Assembly: GCA_965112155.1 (NCBI GenBank)
Contig: OZ218103.1
Direction: 5' to 3' (one strand)
DNA from: Podarcis liolepis
Lineage: Eukaryota
Length of the DNA: 64,000 nt
The translations under genes and the position numbers were made by a program. The notes under the pieces were generated by a model. That model did no database searches, was not told where the DNA came from, and was given only the letters and a program-made list of their open reading frames with translations. Positions 14,571-63,934 of the stretch are shown here, piece after piece; position 1 is the stretch's first letter, and each line of letters starts with the position of its first letter.

Positions 14571-15396
14571 ATCTAGCCTAATGAAGGTTTCTGGAGAACT
14601 ACAAAACATTGGTTGACCTACAAAACCTATTGACCTAATGTGTATTTTGGATTTTATTTCTAGGTAGAATTTGATGTGGACACCACACTTGCTACACTGA
14701 TAGAGCATTTATTTAATTTTCAGTAAAAGTTTGCCTCCTTGAAGTACAATCTTTTTAATAGTGGGCATGCCTCATTAACTCTGCCTTGAGAATCAGAAGC
14801 AGCAAATGCAGGATGGTGTGGTACTACTGGGGAGGGGAATGTCCATTGTTTTGCTGTTAAAGGGAGACTTTCAGAGAAGATCCTGCAAGAAACCATTTTG
14901 TTTTCCCTAAGTTTGAAATCACTCACATCAACCCAATTCCACCCTACTCCACATGTGACCAACTAACAATAATGAAGTTGGTCAAGACTTGGAAACAACT
15001 TATATAAAGCTGAAACTCCTGTCCATCAATGTTTGACCCGACCTAAATGGAATTCAGGTTATTCCTTGAACCCAGTTTTATAAAGATCTATTCCATGCCC
15101 TCTTCACCAACTTCCATGCAAAGTCAACCTGGTCAGTTTTCTTCTATCACTTGCAGGGGGAAAACCTTGGTAGGAAACTGTGTGTACTCTAACCGCATGC
15201 AAAACAGGGATGTATTGAATAGGCCCTTTGCTAATCTGGGGTGAAGCAAGTGGGGTTTGATATTTTGCATAACACTGTCATATCCCTATGAATAGTGTGA
15301 GAAGAATATTTTTCTTCTTTAAAAATGCTTAATTTCTGAGATGAGTTACTGACCATTTGTTTTCTAGCTTATTTATGCATCCCCAAGGACTAGTGA

Positions 15397-15773
15397 GGGA
15401 CGGGGTGGCGCTGTGGGTAAAACCTCAGTGCCTAGGACTTGCCGATCACATGGTCGGCGGTTCGAATCCCCGTGGCGGGGTGAGCTCCCGTCTTTCGGTC
15501 CCAGCTCCTGCCCACCTAGCAGTTCAAAAGCACTCCTAAGTGCAAGTAGATAAATAGGTATCGCTTTATAGCGGGAAGGTAAACGGCGTTTCCGTGTGCT
15601 GCGCTGGTGCTGGCTCGCCAGAGCAGCTTCGTCACGCTGGCCACGTGACCCGGAAGTGTCTCCGGACAGCGCTGGCCCCCGGCCTCTTAAGTGAGATGGG
15701 CGCACAACCCTAGAGTCGGACACGACTGGCCCGTACGGGCAGGGGTACCTTTACCTTTACCTTTTTTACCTTT
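15397..15773 (+). mobile_element. Full-length young Sauria SINE (Squam1)
   Basis: tRNA-like head with A box tggcgctgtggg and B box GGTTCGAATCC (15459-15469), and an (ACCTTT)n tail. There is a perfect 12-bp target-site duplication, AAGGACTAGTGA, at 15385-15396 and 15774-15785. Many CpGs are intact. Confidence 0.95.
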
Positions 15774-16450
15774 AAGGACTAGTGACATGAAAAATAAAAT
15801 AAAACAGAGTCTGAGAATTCTGGATTCTGAGTTTCTTCCATATAGCCATAGTCATGCAGAACACACATAGCTTTGTCTATATGAGTCAGGCACATGGAGG
15901 GAAATGTTCCTGTGTGGGTCTTCAGCCAGCACGACAGCATACAAATTTTAAATACTCAAGCTGTTCAAAGGATCAGCAGAAGGCCTCCTTATCACACTCA
16001 TAATTTAGAATAGAAGCTCTTGTACATGATACAATCCCACACCACTGGAGAGTGTGTGAATACTGCAACCACAGGGGGGGGGGCATTGTGGGGAAGGAGA
16101 GATTGACAATATAATGGAACACTCTCACCAGACCATTGCCCACACTCCCATCAGGGAAGCAATTAGGTGCTATATACCTAGGGAATCAGTCCCACACAGT
16201 TGCAACATTCACATCACTTCCCAATGGCATGGGATAACACCATGATGCAGCATGGATGAAGGGGGGAATACTTTATTAAATCAGCTATAGTGGCATTGAC
16301 ACTTTAGATTCACAGTTAAACTAAAGAGAGAAAGATCTCATACTTTAAGCGTACTTCCAGACAGCACTGCTTTTCATGGGCAGTTGAACATTGACTGTGT
16401 CACTACCACAGTGAATCTGCACAGCTTCAATGGGGGGGGGCAGAATAATA

Positions 16451-16651
16451 CAGTCGTACCTTGGAAATCAAACCATTCCAGAAGTCTGTTCGACTTCTGA
16501 AGCGTTCGACTTCCAAAGTGTGGCTCCTGCAGCCAATCAGAAGCCGCGGAAGTTCCGTTGGATGTTCGGCTTCCAAAAGAACGTTTGGAAACCAGAACAC
16601 TCACTTCTGGTTTTCGATCGTTCGGGAGCCGAAATGTACAAGTTACGACTG
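16451..16651. mobile_element. Non-autonomous Tc1/mariner (pogo/Tigger-like) DNA transposon
   Basis: Terminal inverted repeats CAGTCGTACCTTG...CAAGTTACGACTG, flanked by TA on both sides (16449-16450 and 16652-16653). Confidence 0.85.
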
Positions 16652-17159
16652 TACTGGCAAAAGCTGGAGGAAGAGGACTGGTTTTCGCATGTGTAAACCA
16701 ACATGAGTGTGCAATACTGAAAACTCACCACTAGGAGATAAGCATAAGTGGAGAAGCTGCAGCTGGAATGGAATCGCAAACCAATAGCCACTGTTAGACT
16801 TGTAATGATCTTACTCTCCAGTCCCACTTAGAAAGCACACCATATAACCAGTAGGTAATCAGCCAAACCACCATTGATGCACCATTCCAAGTTTAGCTCT
16901 GTCTCCTTCCTTGCTATCTCTCCCCAAACATTTAAACAAGGAACCCACGGCATGTCCAAAAGGTCCAAACCTTTCCAGATACATTCCAGTTTGAAAGCTG
17001 AAACACACCATCACAGTCACGCATTACTAACATGCCAACACAGAGCTTTCTTTGGCTTTCCCCATTGCTCTGTGCCCAGAACACACATTCCAGCAATCTC
17101 TCCACTGCAGCTCGCATTGCTGGGGCAGCCATGACCACAGCCACAATCCCAGGAAGGAT

Positions 17160-18150
17160 CCTACCTCTGCACAAGGCTGTCCAAGAACTTGACAGGGCTC
17201 TGTTTGAAAAAAGCTGTTGAAAGAAATGATCTCTTTAAGTGCAATGGGGAGATATTTGTCTCTGATTTACCCTTGGCTTTTTGCTCTGGTTCAGGTAGGA
17301 GCGGCGTGGGATGGCTGGCAGATCTGAGAGCATGGCACGCCCCAGCGGGCAAAGCGCGCAGTGCGGAGGAATGCGAGAGTCAGTTTGGAGTGCTCTCCAT
17401 TTATCAAACTCATGCAGCNNNNNNNNNNNNNNNNNNNNNNNNNNNNNNNNNNNNNNNNNNNNNNNNNNNNNNNNNNNNNNNNNNNNNNNNNNNNNNNNNN
17501 NNNNNNNNNNNNNNNNNNNNNNNNNNNNNNNNNNNNNNNNNNNNNNNNNNNNNNNNNNNNNNNNNNNNNNNNNNGAGAGAGCCAGAGCAACTCCAGATAA
17601 TAAAGAGAACCAAGAAAGGGGAAAGGAGAAAAAAAAAGCGAAGAAAGAAAGAGAAAAGAAAAGAAAAGATATCTGACCTGACTCTGCCATCTACCTTAAC
17701 AGAACCTCAACGAGAGCCGGCTCAGCAGAGCTTTAGAGAATGTAAAACATTGCTCAAAAGAGAGAGGGCTCGTTAGCAGCAACTGCCAGCCGGGTGTTTG
17801 GCTGGAATCCTTTTCACTTCCAGCTTCGCTTTAGGTCGTAAGTGGTAATAAGTTTGTTGGTTTCTATTGCAGCTTCCCAATCTGCTCCCTTTAAGGGAAG
17901 ATTTCCAGCGCATGCTCGCTTTTTCTTTTGCACAACCAGCCAGTCGTTCGCGGCCCTGCGTAGCCTAGCACAGGATGCCACAGGTCAGGATGAAGATGTG
18001 TTGGAAGCCCAGAACTTGAGGAAACTGATGTTTCAGGTGGTCTCTTTCTGGTAGCAAAGGACCAGATAAGAAGGGATGCCAAGCATCAGCATGGAAGGGC
18101 CCCAGCAGAGGAGACAGTGCCTGCGTGAAGCCCAAGCAGCTGACGTCAGA
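17160..18150. promoter_or_regulatory. CpG-enriched intronic promoter-like region
   Basis: Local CpG clusters (17302-17376, 17711-17960) not explained by a recognisable repeat. Also a GA-rich tract, a GTC|GTAAGT donor at 17837/17838 and a CRE TGACGTCA at 18141-18148. Confidence 0.5.
17419..17574. other. Assembly gap (156 N)
   Basis: Run of N. Confidence 1.
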
Positions 18151-21100
18151 ATGATTACATCCCTCTAATGCACAAACACTGGTTGTTACTTGTCTCCTTC
18201 TGTCAGAATAGGGCACTCCAAGAGGACAGAATATTGAAGAGGCTATTCCAAGCAGCTAGGATTCATGAAAAATAGTGCCTTCATTTTGTAATATTAATAA
18301 ATAAGAAAGCATCTAAGAAATACTAAAGGAATAAAGTCTGTGGGGCTCAGTGCAGGAAGTATAATATCCTGATGGTCTGGTATTGCTGGGCTACTTTGCT
18401 CAGGTTCAACTGCATTCACACAAGCCTTGCAATTGGTTACCCATGGCAAGTGATTATCTATTGGATTTGATATTTATATACCTGGGTCTATTTGACCAGA
18501 ACCAACCCAATACCAACTAGTAAGCAAGTGACTAGCTTTGCCAATGAGAAACAAGAAAGAGGAGTCAGCACACTAGGGGGAACTCTGAGGTTTGAAAATA
18601 TAGATGGCTTTAACAAGAGGTTTAAAAACATACGTAAGGGCCCCAAAAAACAACCCAACGAGGACTGCTTTCTCTCTCACCTTCAGTTTCCCCTTGTGCA
18701 AATAAGGGAAATTGCGGGAAGGAAGAGAAGAAATAATAGAATATATCCTAAAATTAATGTCAGGAAAAATTAAGGTTGTAATGTGTTATGCATAGTTAAG
18801 GTGTAGGCAAATAAGTCTTTCCACTGAAGGTTCAATTCCTTTCCTGTTCTCTCCCTGTTAATTAAGATCATTAAGGCATATATATCCTCTTGCTGAGATG
18901 GTGCCCAAACCACTTTCCCCTGGAAAAAAGATGGAAACCATTGACATTGACTAGAGTACTCTCTACGCAGTAAACTGTGATGTTATATGCCTACTCTAAA
19001 GCATCTGGAACTGGACACTGTTAGAAATAATACAGCTATAATACTGGGCTAGATGGGCCATTGGTTTGACCCCCAAAAGATTGTTCTTATATTATGCACT
19101 GCTCCACTGATGTTTTAATAGTCTTTCATATCTCATCCCATTAACTATCCTGCCCCTGCTTAAATCCCTCAAAAAGCCTCATCTCGATCCTGTGCCTAAC
19201 CTCCCTCTGTCTGCAAGGACCTTGGGGGTGCACTGCTTCATGCATCATGTGGTACAGAGCTAACACAGCATGTGCCAAATCACATCTACCACAGGTGGAT
19301 TTTAATGCCATGTTAAATGTTGAGGCAGGATACTGCCCCCTTTCAGATACTGCCGCTTCCAAAAAATAAAATAAAAAAATCCCCCACAGAAGGCTAGGGT
19401 GGCTTTTAAAAAACTATTCTATATTACTTCAAGCTTTGAAGTACAGAGAATAGCAACACTCACATGCGGGTTGATTTTTCTTTTTAAATGCTGCCTTTAT
19501 CAGAATAAATCTTTTCCTCCTCTGTATCACTGGAGATAGATAATCAAGTCAAAAAAGAAAGTCTCTTCTAACAATAGATTTCTTTTTCTTTCTGAACTTC
19601 AAATGGGAAACTCTTATCTCCAGCCACAGTTGACCAAGAGAAGAAAAGAACAGAACACACAGGCACACTCACCAAACCTTCCATTTACTCCAAAGGCCAT
19701 GCTAACTCCACATACCCGCACCACTTCCCCCTCTGCTTAACAGAGAGAGGCATTCAGAACATTTTATAGGACGTATTTACTCACTAGAAACACTCTTGAA
19801 ACAGAATGCTCCTTTTTGCTCAGAAGATGAACTTTGGTCTCTAAAATGGTATCTCGCCAGGTAAGTGTAGCTGCTCTGAGCATGAGAGATTTTCAAAGAC
19901 ATCTTCCATACCCAATCCTCTCTGACCAGCACTGTGAGCTTCCCAAAGGTATCTGGGGAGCCAGCTTTGGGAAATGTTCCCATTTTTTCCAGTTCTTCAT
20001 TGCCAGGTATATCTGGGGGACTCCTTTTGTTCCCATACAAAACCTTTAACCCTTTGAATTATCACTGGAGGTTACAAATCTCCTTAGGAGAAACAGGGGG
20101 ATTTCATAAGGCACTGATTTGGAGAAACATAGGGCTAACCTACACTTAGCTTTTGCCCCACTCTTTTCAGGCACAGGCCCATGCTTAAAAACTCTGAGTC
20201 CGAGCCTTTGTTTGTTTCTGCCCCAAGCTTGTTTGTATGTTTTTCTGTCTGTTTTTGCCTTGCTCTTTAGCACTCAATTAGAGCAAACCTCAATTCGAGT
20301 TTGAGCTTTAAAGAGCAGGTTTTCTGAGAGAAAGCTCCAGAACAAATGGGGGAGGGCGCCTCTCTCCAATAAAAAAAAAACCAGATATAAGTAGTTTAAG
20401 CCAGTGAAAAGATGACCATATACAGCTACTAGCCCAGAAAAAATACAATCCCAAAACAAAATATTACACTCTCCTTTGTAATTTGTTCAAAATATCAATT
20501 ATTATACTAATGTCTATGGAAACACCACTGGCTTTCTCTGAGGAATCTGCATTAGAACAGTCTCAGAAGCCTCCCTCTCACATGGGATGATCTATCATAC
20601 AAGGTACCCTCACTTCAAGCTGCCTGATGACTGATGTTCCACTAGCAGCGTGTTGGGATTGGCTGAGCACCCAGACAAATGCTCTATAATCCCTTTTTTC
20701 CTCTCCTCCTCTGCCAATGTCTCCCATGAGAGGTGTGATGATAGACGGTGACATAACTGACTGTTCCCAATCAAGGTAATGTAAGTAATGACAGCTGACG
20801 TGATTCCTGGAACGTGTTTCCAGCGGTTGGCCTATCTGCTTTGCCTACTATAGCAGAACATGGCAGCGCGTACAGAAAGGGGGGAAGCGGGGGAAGAACC
20901 TTAGCACAGGTCTTGAAAAAGTTAAAGAGTGCCTACTGGAAGCTCTAAACTGAAAAACTGCATCAAAACCAGAAGTACCACAAAGGCCCCATTAACACAT
21001 AATCTGCCCCAGGAAAGAACTCCAGTAACCTAAACTCCTCTCATGCTTTGGTGGGAGTCCAAGAGGTGAAATTGTGTGACTAAGTGGTACCCACAGTCAT

Positions 21101-23623: not shown

Positions 23624-25769
23624 AATCTATAAAGCCCAAGTATAGGCATCAGAGGACTAGAGTTCTACTCCTAAATCTATCCTTAAACTTTCCGAGTCTC
23701 AGTGGGAAATATTTAATATCAGTTTTAGCTCCCTTGCTATAAAGGTTGCTTCTAATATTAACAAATGCAAAACACTTGGAACACCTGGATTGGGAAGGAC
23801 TAGGGAAGTCAAAAGGTTATGTGCACTATTTAATTTCTTTCTGCACTGGAAAGCTATGGAAATTTGTATGGGAACATAGTGAAAATATCAGCAAGTATTT
23901 GAAACTAGGTAATACAGAATAATCTGAGCAGTGTTTAATTCAAAGACAAATAGGTAAGAGAAGTTCTATTAATAATAGAATATCAGCAAATACAAGACAG
24001 TTGGTCCAGTTACTGCTGACCAAGGAGAACTAAACTCGCTCGCCCTCCTTGGGCACATCCATGGAAGAACCCTTACAAAATTGCAAGTTGCTCATTGTAT
24101 CTCACCCAGAAAAAAAATTGCATGGAACGTGCCATCATTTACCTCTTGCGCTATTGCTCAGCAGAGCTAATAAATCTTGCATGAGCAGAGCAGATTGTAA
24201 TTTTCTAATATGAAAAGGCATTTGGATTGAAAGAGGGAGGGAAAGATAAAAGTGATTGAATCCCAAGTAGCCCAGGGTCAGTGACAAGACACTCCCAAGA
24301 AGCATGGCTCCCTCTTCTCTCTCAAGCTTTACATACATTCATTTCTCCCTACTCTCCACATGTTCTGTCTTAACTTCCCTTATTGACATCACATTGCTTT
24401 AAATGGTTACACAAGTTATCATTTTCCCCTTCTGATCAATCTGAATTTTCAGGGCAATTACCCTCTTAATCAATTATTGCCATCCAAAGCCCCTCAGATT
24501 CTTCCTCAGCCAAGCAGTTACACCTCTCTGGTGCAGACAGTACACACAGAAGCAATGAAGCTGGGGGCAACGCCAGCACAGGCAAGTCCATCTTATGCAG
24601 ACACACCTGCCTGCTGCAAGACTGGAAAAGTGTGAAGGCCACTTCAAGGAACACCTGATGAAAAGAAATGAGCATGTGTAGGTGGAAGGCCATTAGAGAA
24701 GGAAAGCAATATGTAAGGATCCACAAGTAAAGGGGGGAACCAATTGCCTAGCTGGAGAGTAAACAAATTTATGCAGCCACGCTGCCTGTAGGCCATGAAG
24801 AAGCTACATGATTAAGCACTGCTTAATCCCTAGAAAGGCAAATAAAGAGCCACAATATTTGACAAGGCCCCAAATCAGCAGTCCAGCTGCTTCAGTACGT
24901 GTCCATTTCACAACAAAACCCATATTAACCACACCGCTACTCAACTGACTTCTGGCAGCTTTGTTATGACACAATAAATGTGAGTTGAACTCAAGTCCAG
25001 GACAATGCTGCACTGACCCTCTCAACCCACATCCACAATCAAGTACGTCTTAAGAATCTGCAAATTTCGTACAAGAATCTGGTACATTTCCTGTTAATGG
25101 CAAAATTCCACTTTAGTAACTCTTAAAATATAAAATCTGTTGGCTAGAATTGTTTGATTAAGCAATTGTTCTGGCTTAAATCACACTGATTGTAGAAAGC
25201 AACCTCTCTCAAAGCGTGCTGTTTGTTTGTTTTATCAAGGATACAGATACCAACTATCCTTTCTGAATTTGTTGTGCTACATTCTTTTTCAACTAAAGCT
25301 CAGAAAGATTAAGTTATGCCAGCAAGATTTTACTGAGTAAACACAATCCTGTTCCAATGTGGAATTTTGTATACACTCTTCCATCCTATAGAATCTAGAA
25401 AAGCAGAAGAAATCTTGTGGAATCTCCTTCAACTGCTCCTACTATCCCCAAGTTCACTTTAGAGGCAACACCATCAACATTTTGAGAAGGACAGCCGGTG
25501 TTCTATAATGCTAAATAGTGCTAACAGATTTTTTTCCAGGTGCTGCAAGGTCTTTGCCAATCTGACCCACAAGATAACATGATAGATCCCTGGAAGCCAG
25601 CTGTGACATGCGTACCACGCATTTTGAAGTTAAAAATGCTTGTATGCATTTCAACCTGATCTCTGCTTTATGTGCAAGTCCATGAGTGAATACACCCAGA
25701 GCACCATCTAGTCTTGTTTTCAGTTGTGGAGGATCAATGTTGTTGACAAGGTGCTTGGAGAACTGCAAT

Positions 25770-33769: not shown

Positions 33770-34290
33770 CACTCTGGGCTATTATTCAACTCCCAAGCCC
33801 TGGCCCTGCTGCATTTAGTCCAAACATAATATCCTTCATGCATATATTATCTGTCTCCCTATTATCTGGAATCATTTCGGAATTAAATTTCAGTCCTGCA
33901 ATATTGGCTCGAAGAGCGGCTCGCTTTATGGGCTAGTCAAAGGTTAGAATACCAATCAAAATAACATTGCCGATGCAGCGAGACATTTTAATATTCCAAA
34001 ACCCGGTAATTGTAAAAGGACATAATATTTTTTCCCTGATTACCCCAAAGGCAACACATGTTAACAAGGCGAGGGAGAGAGTGAAAGGATTTCCAGAGTT
34101 CAAGACAGCTGTGTGACAGATTTAAAGGCAAAGTAGTAGAAAGCTGGCCCCATGCAGCCTTCCAGGAGGGAGGGAGGAAGAAGCACACCTGCCCCTATTG
34201 ATCAGATCAATGAACCCAGTGTCTCTCTCTCTGCGATTGGCTAGTTACCAGTATCATTTGAGCTATCACATGACTGTCAAGCTGATCACA
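33770..34290. promoter_or_regulatory. Candidate conserved non-coding element
   Basis: Repeat-free with retained CpGs (gctcgaagagcggctcgc, gccgatgcagcgag), TTTATGG HOX-type site, TCAAAG, TAAT cores and TGACAG. Confidence 0.5.
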
Positions 34291-41339: not shown

Positions 41340-41412
41340 CTTTTTGAGATTAATCCACTGTTTGAAGTAATCAGCAACTGGAAGCCCTAAGTATTGGCAT
41401 TGTCCAGGTAAC
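41340..41412 (-). CDS. ERI3: ERI1 exoribonuclease family member 3, next internal coding exon (73 nt, phase 2 to phase 0)
   Basis: Minus strand has a long polypyrimidine tract, ttctctctcctctcttacag|G TTA CCT GGA...AAA AAG|gtactt. It translates to LPGQCQYLGLPVADYFKQWINLKK (inside ORF 41217..41447) and is phase-compatible with the upstream exon. Confidence 0.97.
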
Positions 41413-53032: not shown

Positions 53033-53307
53033 CAGAGGTCAGAAACCTTTTTCAGCCATGGGCCGGTCCACCGTCCCTCAGACCATGTGGTGGGCCGGAC
53101 TATATTTTTTTGGGGGGGGAAATGAATGAATTCTTATGCCCCACAAATAACCCAGAGATGCATTTTAAATAAAAGCACACATTCTACTCATGTAAAAACA
53201 CCAGGCAGGCCCCACAAATAACCCAGAGATGCATTTTAAATAAAAGGACACATTCTACTCATGTAAAAACACGCTGATTCCCACGGGCCTTAGGTTGCCT
53301 ACCCCTG
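53033..53307. mobile_element. Young non-autonomous hAT (Charlie-like) element with an internal 71-bp tandem duplication
   Basis: Termini CAGAGGTCAGAAACCT...AGGTTGCCTACCCCTG; 8-bp TSD GTCAAATA/GTCAAACA. The repeat unit gccccacaaataacccagagatgc... starts at 53138 and 53209. Confidence 0.88.
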
Positions 53308-62935: not shown

Positions 62936-63230
62936 TGTAATGGGTTTAGGGGTTGCTCGTGCGTAAGTTGCCGCCACTCCTGGCTAGGTTACCTGGTTGA
63001 ACCCTTTCTGACTGAACAGCCTCTAGCATCGTGACTGTCTCAGTCGCTGGCAGAATCCGTCAGTGGGCGTTTCTTGAACTTCTTCCAGCACAAAAGTTCT
63101 TTGACCCCTAGTCTCCGCCTAGTCTCCCTGCGCGGAAGCCTTCCCCAGCAAATGGGCTGCCCCTCTCCCTACTGGGGCATCCCTCTGGAGCCTTCCCTCC
63201 GCCTCTAGCTCCGATGGCAGTTCCATGACA
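62936..63230. mobile_element. Short solo-LTR-like insertion (295 bp)
   Basis: Termini TGTAATGG...CCATGACA (7/8 inverted), with GGGGG on both flanks as a 5-bp TSD. GC/CpG-rich relative to its surroundings. Confidence 0.7.
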
Positions 63231-63842
63231 GGGGGGATAAAAATGAACCCTATACATTGATCTTTTCTCAAGCAAGAAATACAATGTTCCTTCCTCTTCA
63301 AGTTAGTCATCATTTCTGAAAGAAAGGATCTTCAAACAGACAGTAATGTGGTTCAAGTTCAAGAAAAAATGCACCTGCCATTATCCTGCACTCCGTCTGT
63401 TTACAATATGGACTATTTAGACAGGGGGGAAATGCTGAGATGCAGAAATGCATCAAAGCATGCAACTTCTAGGGATACGTGGGGACCTCAGCATCTTGTG
63501 TATCTGACCAAGGAAATGATGGGTGCCACCTTTACTCCCAAATGTGGCATGCTCCATAATGTCCCCTCTGAGATGGCTAAGTGCTGGCACAGAGGCAGAG
63601 GGAGAGGGTGACAGGCATGATATGACTATCACTAGACATGTATCAGTACCACACCATTTGAAGATATTTTACTTACAAAAGGGGTGTGCTACCTAGAAAG
63701 TTAAAATACAGGAGAAATGGTAGCACACACTTCCCTTCTCCAAAATAAGGAAGACACATGAAAATCCTAGCGCAGGAGGAAATATTGAGAAGCGGCAAGA
63801 GTGCTCATAGCATGAATGCATAATCCTCCATCCCATACTCAC

Positions 63843-63934
63843 ATTACTTTCAAGTCCCAGTCTCCACAGGTTACAAAAATCGACTTGACGCTGGGATCCA
63901 AGAGGCCTTCCTTTGCCATCCACTCATCGACCCT
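63843..63934 (-). CDS. ERI3: ERI1 exoribonuclease family member 3, internal coding exon (92 nt, phase 0 to phase 2)
   Basis: Minus strand reads ctgtttctttcag|AGGGTCGAT...AAAGTAAT|gtgagt. It translates to RVDEWMAKEGLLDPSVKSIFVTCGDWDLKV plus AT, which matches vertebrate ERI3 as I recall it and includes the ExoII TCGDWD motif of ERI-1-family DEDDh nucleases. It joins the 41412 exon in frame (AT|G = Met). Confidence 0.97.

Follow-up and report, generated by a model that had tools for sequence, protein, structure and literature searches.

Positions 17290-18150 of the 64-kb window (the whole stretch of DNA analysed here, C6:50964001-51028000 in a 1.57-Gb genome) hold a single-copy, CpG-retaining non-coding element, which lies in the 58-kb intron 7 of ERI3, 23 kb from exon 7 (Table 1). 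It is real and probably functional, and there is about an even chance that it acts as a long-range cis-regulatory (enhancer-type) element of the neighboring gene RNF220, its conservation and enhancer activity both being putative. A first-pass annotation had instead proposed a hidden intronic promoter with a plus-strand first exon antisense to ERI3; a real plus-strand first exon at this position now appears rather doubtful. All of the candidate readings are known kinds of element. ERI3 exons and introns are numbered throughout as in the human gene.

Table 1. Features of the element and its host gene (window positions; o/e, observed/expected).
Feature	Positions	Strand	Remarks
Single-copy CpG-retaining non-coding element, ERI3 intron 7	17290..18150		GC 0.50, CpG o/e 0.52
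GC-rich left arm	17305..17418		GC 0.59, CpG o/e 0.73
N stretch, 156 bases	17419..17574		Central part of element; reads N
Purine-rich tract	17575..17672	+	Polypyrimidine tract on ERI3 strand; AATAAA at 17599
CpG core	17700..17970		12 CpG in 271 bases, GC 0.50, o/e 0.71
Proposed donor GTC/GTAAGT	17838..17843	+	Candidate; follows a non-consensus exonic triplet
Second donor-like site	17295..17300	+	Preceded by ~40-base pyrimidine-rich, AG-free run
Donor-like site GAG/GTAGGA	17159..17164	-	Candidate, on ERI3 strand
GCGCATGC	17908..17915		Partial NRF1-type word
Full CRE palindrome TGACGTCA	18141..18148		1 in window, 3 in 434 kb
ERI3 exon 7	41340..41412	-	Host gene; bounds approximate
ERI3 exon 6	63843..63934	-	Host gene; bounds approximate

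The element stands out from its surroundings in CpG content. Its 705 unmasked bases include 23 CpGs, where 579 other windows average 5.4 and none exceeds 16; the background for the whole window is GC 0.42 and CpG o/e 0.19, and the flanks are CpG-poor (o/e 0.16 and 0.12), giving the element sharp edges. Chance does not account for its CpG retention, nor for its purine tract. Three other clusters (at 15451, 16451, and 62951) equal or exceed it in CpG, but all three are repeats, so that its earlier description as the most CpG-dense non-repeat region of the window holds. In absolute terms the enrichment is modest: there are 3.2-4.4 CpG per 100 bases, as against 6.9 in the ERI3 promoter and 5.6 in that of RNF220, and these two nearby promoters have GC contents of 0.63 and 0.57, respectively. 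CpG islands are commonly defined either by a loose rule (at least 200 bases, GC above 0.50, CpG o/e above 0.6) or by a strict one (at least 500 bases, GC at least 0.55, o/e at least 0.65). Positions 17771-17970, with GC 0.51 and o/e 0.79, fall only just inside the first, while the best 500 unmasked bases (GC 0.47, o/e 0.48) fall outside the second; the element is thus a weak CpG island.

A match to a repeat family had been named in advance as an observation that would count against the promoter reading. None was found, and the element is single-copy, with the qualification that very old, decayed copies could escape the search: each part of the element used as a genome query gave one full match, short additional matches were limited to the purine tract, and dispersed transposable-element copies were not found. 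Self-comparison found no copy of it near RNF220, and searching the window with 4227 Rfam families at their gathering scores gave 0 matches to structured RNAs.

The neighboring repeats are of several kinds. That at 15389-15768, which we take to be a Sauria SINE, is CpG-rich and mimics a housekeeping promoter, with an E-box and ETS-like words, and has up to 8 self-matches in 434 kb. The short element at 16450-16655, presumably a Tc1/mariner-type MITE, carries terminal inverted repeats, and its candidate copies number in the thousands (40 of 40 genome copies scored). The third, at 62936-63240, is a young repeat with 79 matches; its copies, spread over many contigs, are 96-99% identical.

No other purine tract in the window is as rich (65 purines in the 70 bases starting at 17601), and the GA/AAAG-rich leader previously noted at 17575-17670 is present as described. 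A plus-strand open frame spanning the N stretch was considered and is explained by the stop-poor character of this tract. The other motifs noted (both plus-strand donors, the minus-strand donor, GCGCATGC, and TGACGTCA) are likewise all at their reported positions. The left arm carries what we take, by eye, to be GC-box-like and initiator-like words. GCGCATGC is a partial match to the NRF1 consensus; the full NRF1 10-mer is absent. This word and the CRE are each rare, with about 0.2 expected per window, although they were picked post hoc and both contain CpG. Both lie downstream of the donor proposed at 17837.

The donor-like sites themselves are not clearly above chance. Scores were taken from a frequency matrix, which may under-rate a perfect +1..+6 match. 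On this scale the 17837 site reaches 4.9 bits, a value equaled or exceeded by 280 plus-strand sites in the window, while two RNF220 donors scored for comparison reach 9.9 and 7.8 bits. The plus strand of the window has 15 GTAAGT words (0.09-0.13 expected per 705 bases), and the 17837 site is among the lowest-scoring of these. Of the consensus donor reported at 17837/17838, then, the position and the perfect +1..+6 word stand, but a strength clearly above chance does not. The best plus-strand GTAAGT donor in the window (12.8 bits) is at 19861-19866, 2 kb to the right of the element. The 17294 site is stronger than that at 17837, yet is equaled by 16 plus-strand sites, and it reads equally well as an acceptor because of the pyrimidine-rich, AG-free run before it. 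A recursive-splice reading of this site was set aside, as it requires a plus-strand transcript from further left and no such transcript was found. The minus-strand site at 17165 (8.2 bits) is equaled by 47 minus-strand sites, and six of the nine minus-strand donors to the left of the element are borne by repeats. The suggestion that exons point outward from the gap, as at a bidirectional promoter, does not come out cleanly, the 17294 site being on the plus strand yet left of the gap. The 2 kb downstream has one strong donor and five poly(A)-signal words, including one within the proposed exon, but this is a noisy test; as an indicator of bidirectional promoters the donor/poly(A)-signal asymmetry was abandoned, since the RNF220 and ERI3 promoters lacked the expected pattern and most of the minus-strand donors are repeat-borne.

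RNA records slightly disfavor an abundant spliced exon, and are compatible with a tissue-restricted one. The run search listed 24 runs and gave no RNA run on record as holding the element. Four of the 24, of unspecified tissues, were placed on positions 17672-18330, at depths of 0-3. Two (X1 and X2) consist of contigs, assigned as RNA by guess; one (X20) is single-cell RNA and one (X22) bulk RNA, of which 6 and 12%, respectively, of the raw run was read. At this very low depth, none of the five records from the four runs is spliced at 17837, and none shows loose ends or piled-up starts within 17672-18330. X1 and X2 contribute three contig pieces (at depth 2-3), each located on the intron side of the donor (17852-18227), which rules out their being exon-only. 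X20 contributes two reads, one running unspliced through the donor from ~17786 to 17924, with a read strand not tied to transcript strand; X22, which has no control, contributes none. A single G>A difference at the CpG at 17946, in a contig of depth 2.9, may be an error. The layout of the five records is as expected from ERI3 pre-mRNA or DNA background.

The setting of the element is that of a genomic regulatory block, in that its host intron belongs to a gene next to a developmental one that has a cluster of conserved elements. The next two ERI3 exons are on the minus strand at C6 ~50947190 and ~50879334, and the ERI3 CpG island is at C6 ~51066350-51067000. Mammalian synteny had predicted a plus-strand RNF220 on the right, and the gene was located there: its exon-2 acceptor is at 51106133, 124 kb from 17837, its exon-2 translation is identical to a lacertid RefSeq protein over all 247 residues (100%), which makes the animal a lacertid-type lizard, and it has its own 3.5-kb CpG island, which starts at C6 ~51098750, ~117 kb to the right of the element, with a strong donor at C6:51099374.

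Conserved elements in the introns of bystander genes belong to the standard target/bystander model (PMC2688929), and the target genes of such blocks are described there as having widely spaced alternative starts. In humans, ERI3 ranks among the 100 genes, transcription-factor genes excluded, with the most ultraconserved elements, and the cluster at RNF220 comprises 12 of them (PMC13513235). Three of the UCNEs assigned to the RNF220 cluster (RNF220_Antigone, RNF220_Evelyn, and RNF220_Frederica; PMC5836973) fall within human ERI3, by the gene bounds in PMC11694760. For one RNF220-cluster UCNE the CpG density is 3.7 per 100 bases and the methylation in mouse tissues 18-58% (PMC5836973), so that a density like that of the present element does not need a promoter to account for it.

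As an RNF220 regulatory element, it would be expected to work as follows. Purifying selection on factor-binding sites, together with low or intermediate methylation, would retain its CpGs; factors bound to the words of CRE and NRF1 type would reach the RNF220 promoter by a loop spanning ERI3, with ERI3 in the role of a bystander gene; transcripts from the element, if any, would be short and unstable and for the most part left unspliced; and the donor-like words would be incidental. It would then add a candidate to the many regulatory elements known from this locus, and would help to annotate how RNF220 is controlled in reptiles.

Comparison with ERI3 protein models bears on constraint in the intron. 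Three other spots in intron 7 are matched by alternative ends of ERI3 models from three birds (one of them a macaw) and a turtle. In the window, the minus-strand translation of 33936-34103 is 89% identical to the alternative end of the macaw model; judged by this match, the segment is likely a highly conserved non-coding element, and perhaps the counterpart of the UCNE RNF220_Evelyn. Two weaker matches, to turtle and bird alternative ends (19513-19641 and 24583-24693), are likely conserved non-coding or alternative-exon sequences. Since all three spots match bird or turtle sequences, ERI3 intron 7 is under constraint in reptiles as well.

Such a constrained neighborhood argues against the element being neutral sequence or a decayed old insertion, a functionless meeting of local CpG with a simple purine run, as do its single copy, its sharp edges, and a CpG count far above the range of the window. 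The CpG excess is modest enough (o/e 0.52) to suit this reading, and the G>A difference at 17946, if not an error, fits methyl-CpG decay, but overall we think it improbable. A signal belonging to the ERI3 strand, either a cryptic ERI3 exon with its polypyrimidine tract or an internal ERI3 promoter using the 17165 donor, is very unlikely. The long minus-strand pyrimidine run and the 8.2-bit donor would suit it, and annotated extra exons past exon 7 are found in many species (35 of the 105 ERI3 proteins with the exon-7 motif diverge after it). However, the lacertid isoforms compared join exon 7 straight to exon 8; none of 120 + 48 ERI3 proteins aligns credibly to the element, a comparison covering the letters outside the hidden N stretch; six weak matches (E 0.004-0.01) come from ordinary coding parts and are at chance level; and the surplus of minus-strand donors on the left is mostly the repeat-borne one noted above. 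The order of GC-rich arm, purine-rich tract, and donor does recall the first exon of a developmental gene. The element might be a tissue-restricted promoter, its plus-strand non-coding exon ending at 17837 and starting a nested antisense lncRNA whose far end also falls inside ERI3; we consider this unlikely. It would account for the combination of the highest non-repeat CpG density and the richest purine tract in the window with a perfect +1..+6 donor and a 200-base segment inside the loose CpG-island rule, and intragenic CpG islands are reported often to initiate transcription (PMC8873577; PMC5378174). Against it are the lack of any spliced record among those placed here, the low rank of 17837 among the 15 plus-strand GTAAGT sites, the downstream preponderance of poly(A)-signal words over strong donors (subject to the noise of that test), and the nested-gene tables of PMC11694760, which for ERI3 list ERI3-IT1 and one miRNA in human and one miRNA in mouse.

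The same exon might alternatively belong to RNF220, as a far-distal 5' UTR exon spliced over ~111-124 kb, in a transcript running antisense to ERI3 across its exons 1-7 and its promoter. The position and strand of RNF220 allow for this, and a further hint comes from a 92-base exon-like segment at C6:51092916-51093007, ~6 kb upstream of the RNF220 CpG island, which corresponds to the start of three lacertid RefSeq isoforms beginning MTLM (P0001, P0122, and P0123). As the 5' part of RNF220 exon 2 is open in frame, this MTLM segment would add a 43-residue N-terminal extension; it has a strong donor, and its acceptor-like 5' edge means that some RNF220 transcripts may start further left. That edge is weak, however, with 77 pseudo-exons in 434 kb scoring as well, and the ERI3 CpG island, 26 kb from the segment, is a nearer candidate start than the element. 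If the 17837 exon were joined to exon 2, a stop codon would lie in frame two codons ahead of its donor, making the exon non-coding. Among 163 RNF220 proteins compared (the best 120 of 1110 matches, plus cluster members), none of the 19 with N-terminal extensions matches the window, a comparison of coding sequence to which a non-coding exon is invisible; a coding 5' extension from the element finds no support in either result. The extension of a snake protein maps to an exon in the RNF220 CpG island (E 2e-7), and those of anoles also map there, though weakly. In PMC11694760 the listed transcript of human RNF220 begins 50 kb beyond ERI3, and the passages on human RNF220 in PMC12296455 give five start sites and do not mention ERI3. 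With no junction among the five RNA records either, the far-distal exon put forward by the first-pass annotation retains its synteny but gains nothing from annotated isoforms, and is quite unlikely. No more probable is a conserved element doubling as a far-distal RNF220 promoter, with a >110-kb splice to the MTLM segment or exon 2. Antisense transcription through seven ERI3 exons would in that case couple neural RNF220 expression to interference with ERI3. A distal promoter of this kind would be an unlisted start for the brain-type long RNF220 isoform, and would provide a testable example of antisense transcription from a target gene across its bystander.

The preferred reading, as a putative RNF220 regulatory element, has its closest parallels in RNF220_Antigone, RNF220_Evelyn, and RNF220_Frederica, which are likewise non-coding, CpG-retaining, and inside ERI3 beside RNF220 (PMC5836973). 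Compared by description rather than alignment, the present element is somewhat CpG-denser than these (1.5-2.5 per 100 bases) and has in addition a purine tract and donor-like words. With bystander-intron elements in general (PMC2688929) it shares the layout of a housekeeping-type host beside a developmental regulator, its own enhancer role being putative. With intragenic or orphan CpG islands, which can serve as promoters or enhancers (PMC8873577; PMC5378174), it shares an intronic CpG excess and promoter-like words, but it is short and weak, fails the 500-base rule, and is known here from its sequence; PMC5378174 moreover left out islands with another gene between island and target. The ERI3, RNF220, and ERI3-IT1 literature, judged mostly by titles, yielded no described transcript at the element, and the main text of PMC6349408 does not mention RNF220. 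An enhancer tagged RNF220/ERI3 in PMC11704014 was set aside, as its coordinates are on chr3.

The human lncRNA ERI3-IT1 (hg19 chr1:44709079-44709945) offers a further parallel, in position, as an annotated transcript nested in ERI3. By its exon positions, it is presumably in intron 8 rather than intron 7. Intron 8 of the lizard gene includes the most CpG-rich spot of 434 kb (C6:50943530-50944050, o/e ~0.9), which has inverted ends resembling what we take to be those of a hAT-type MITE. Within the window, positions 53138-53272 are a tandem duplication of 64 bases, with the copies 98% identical.
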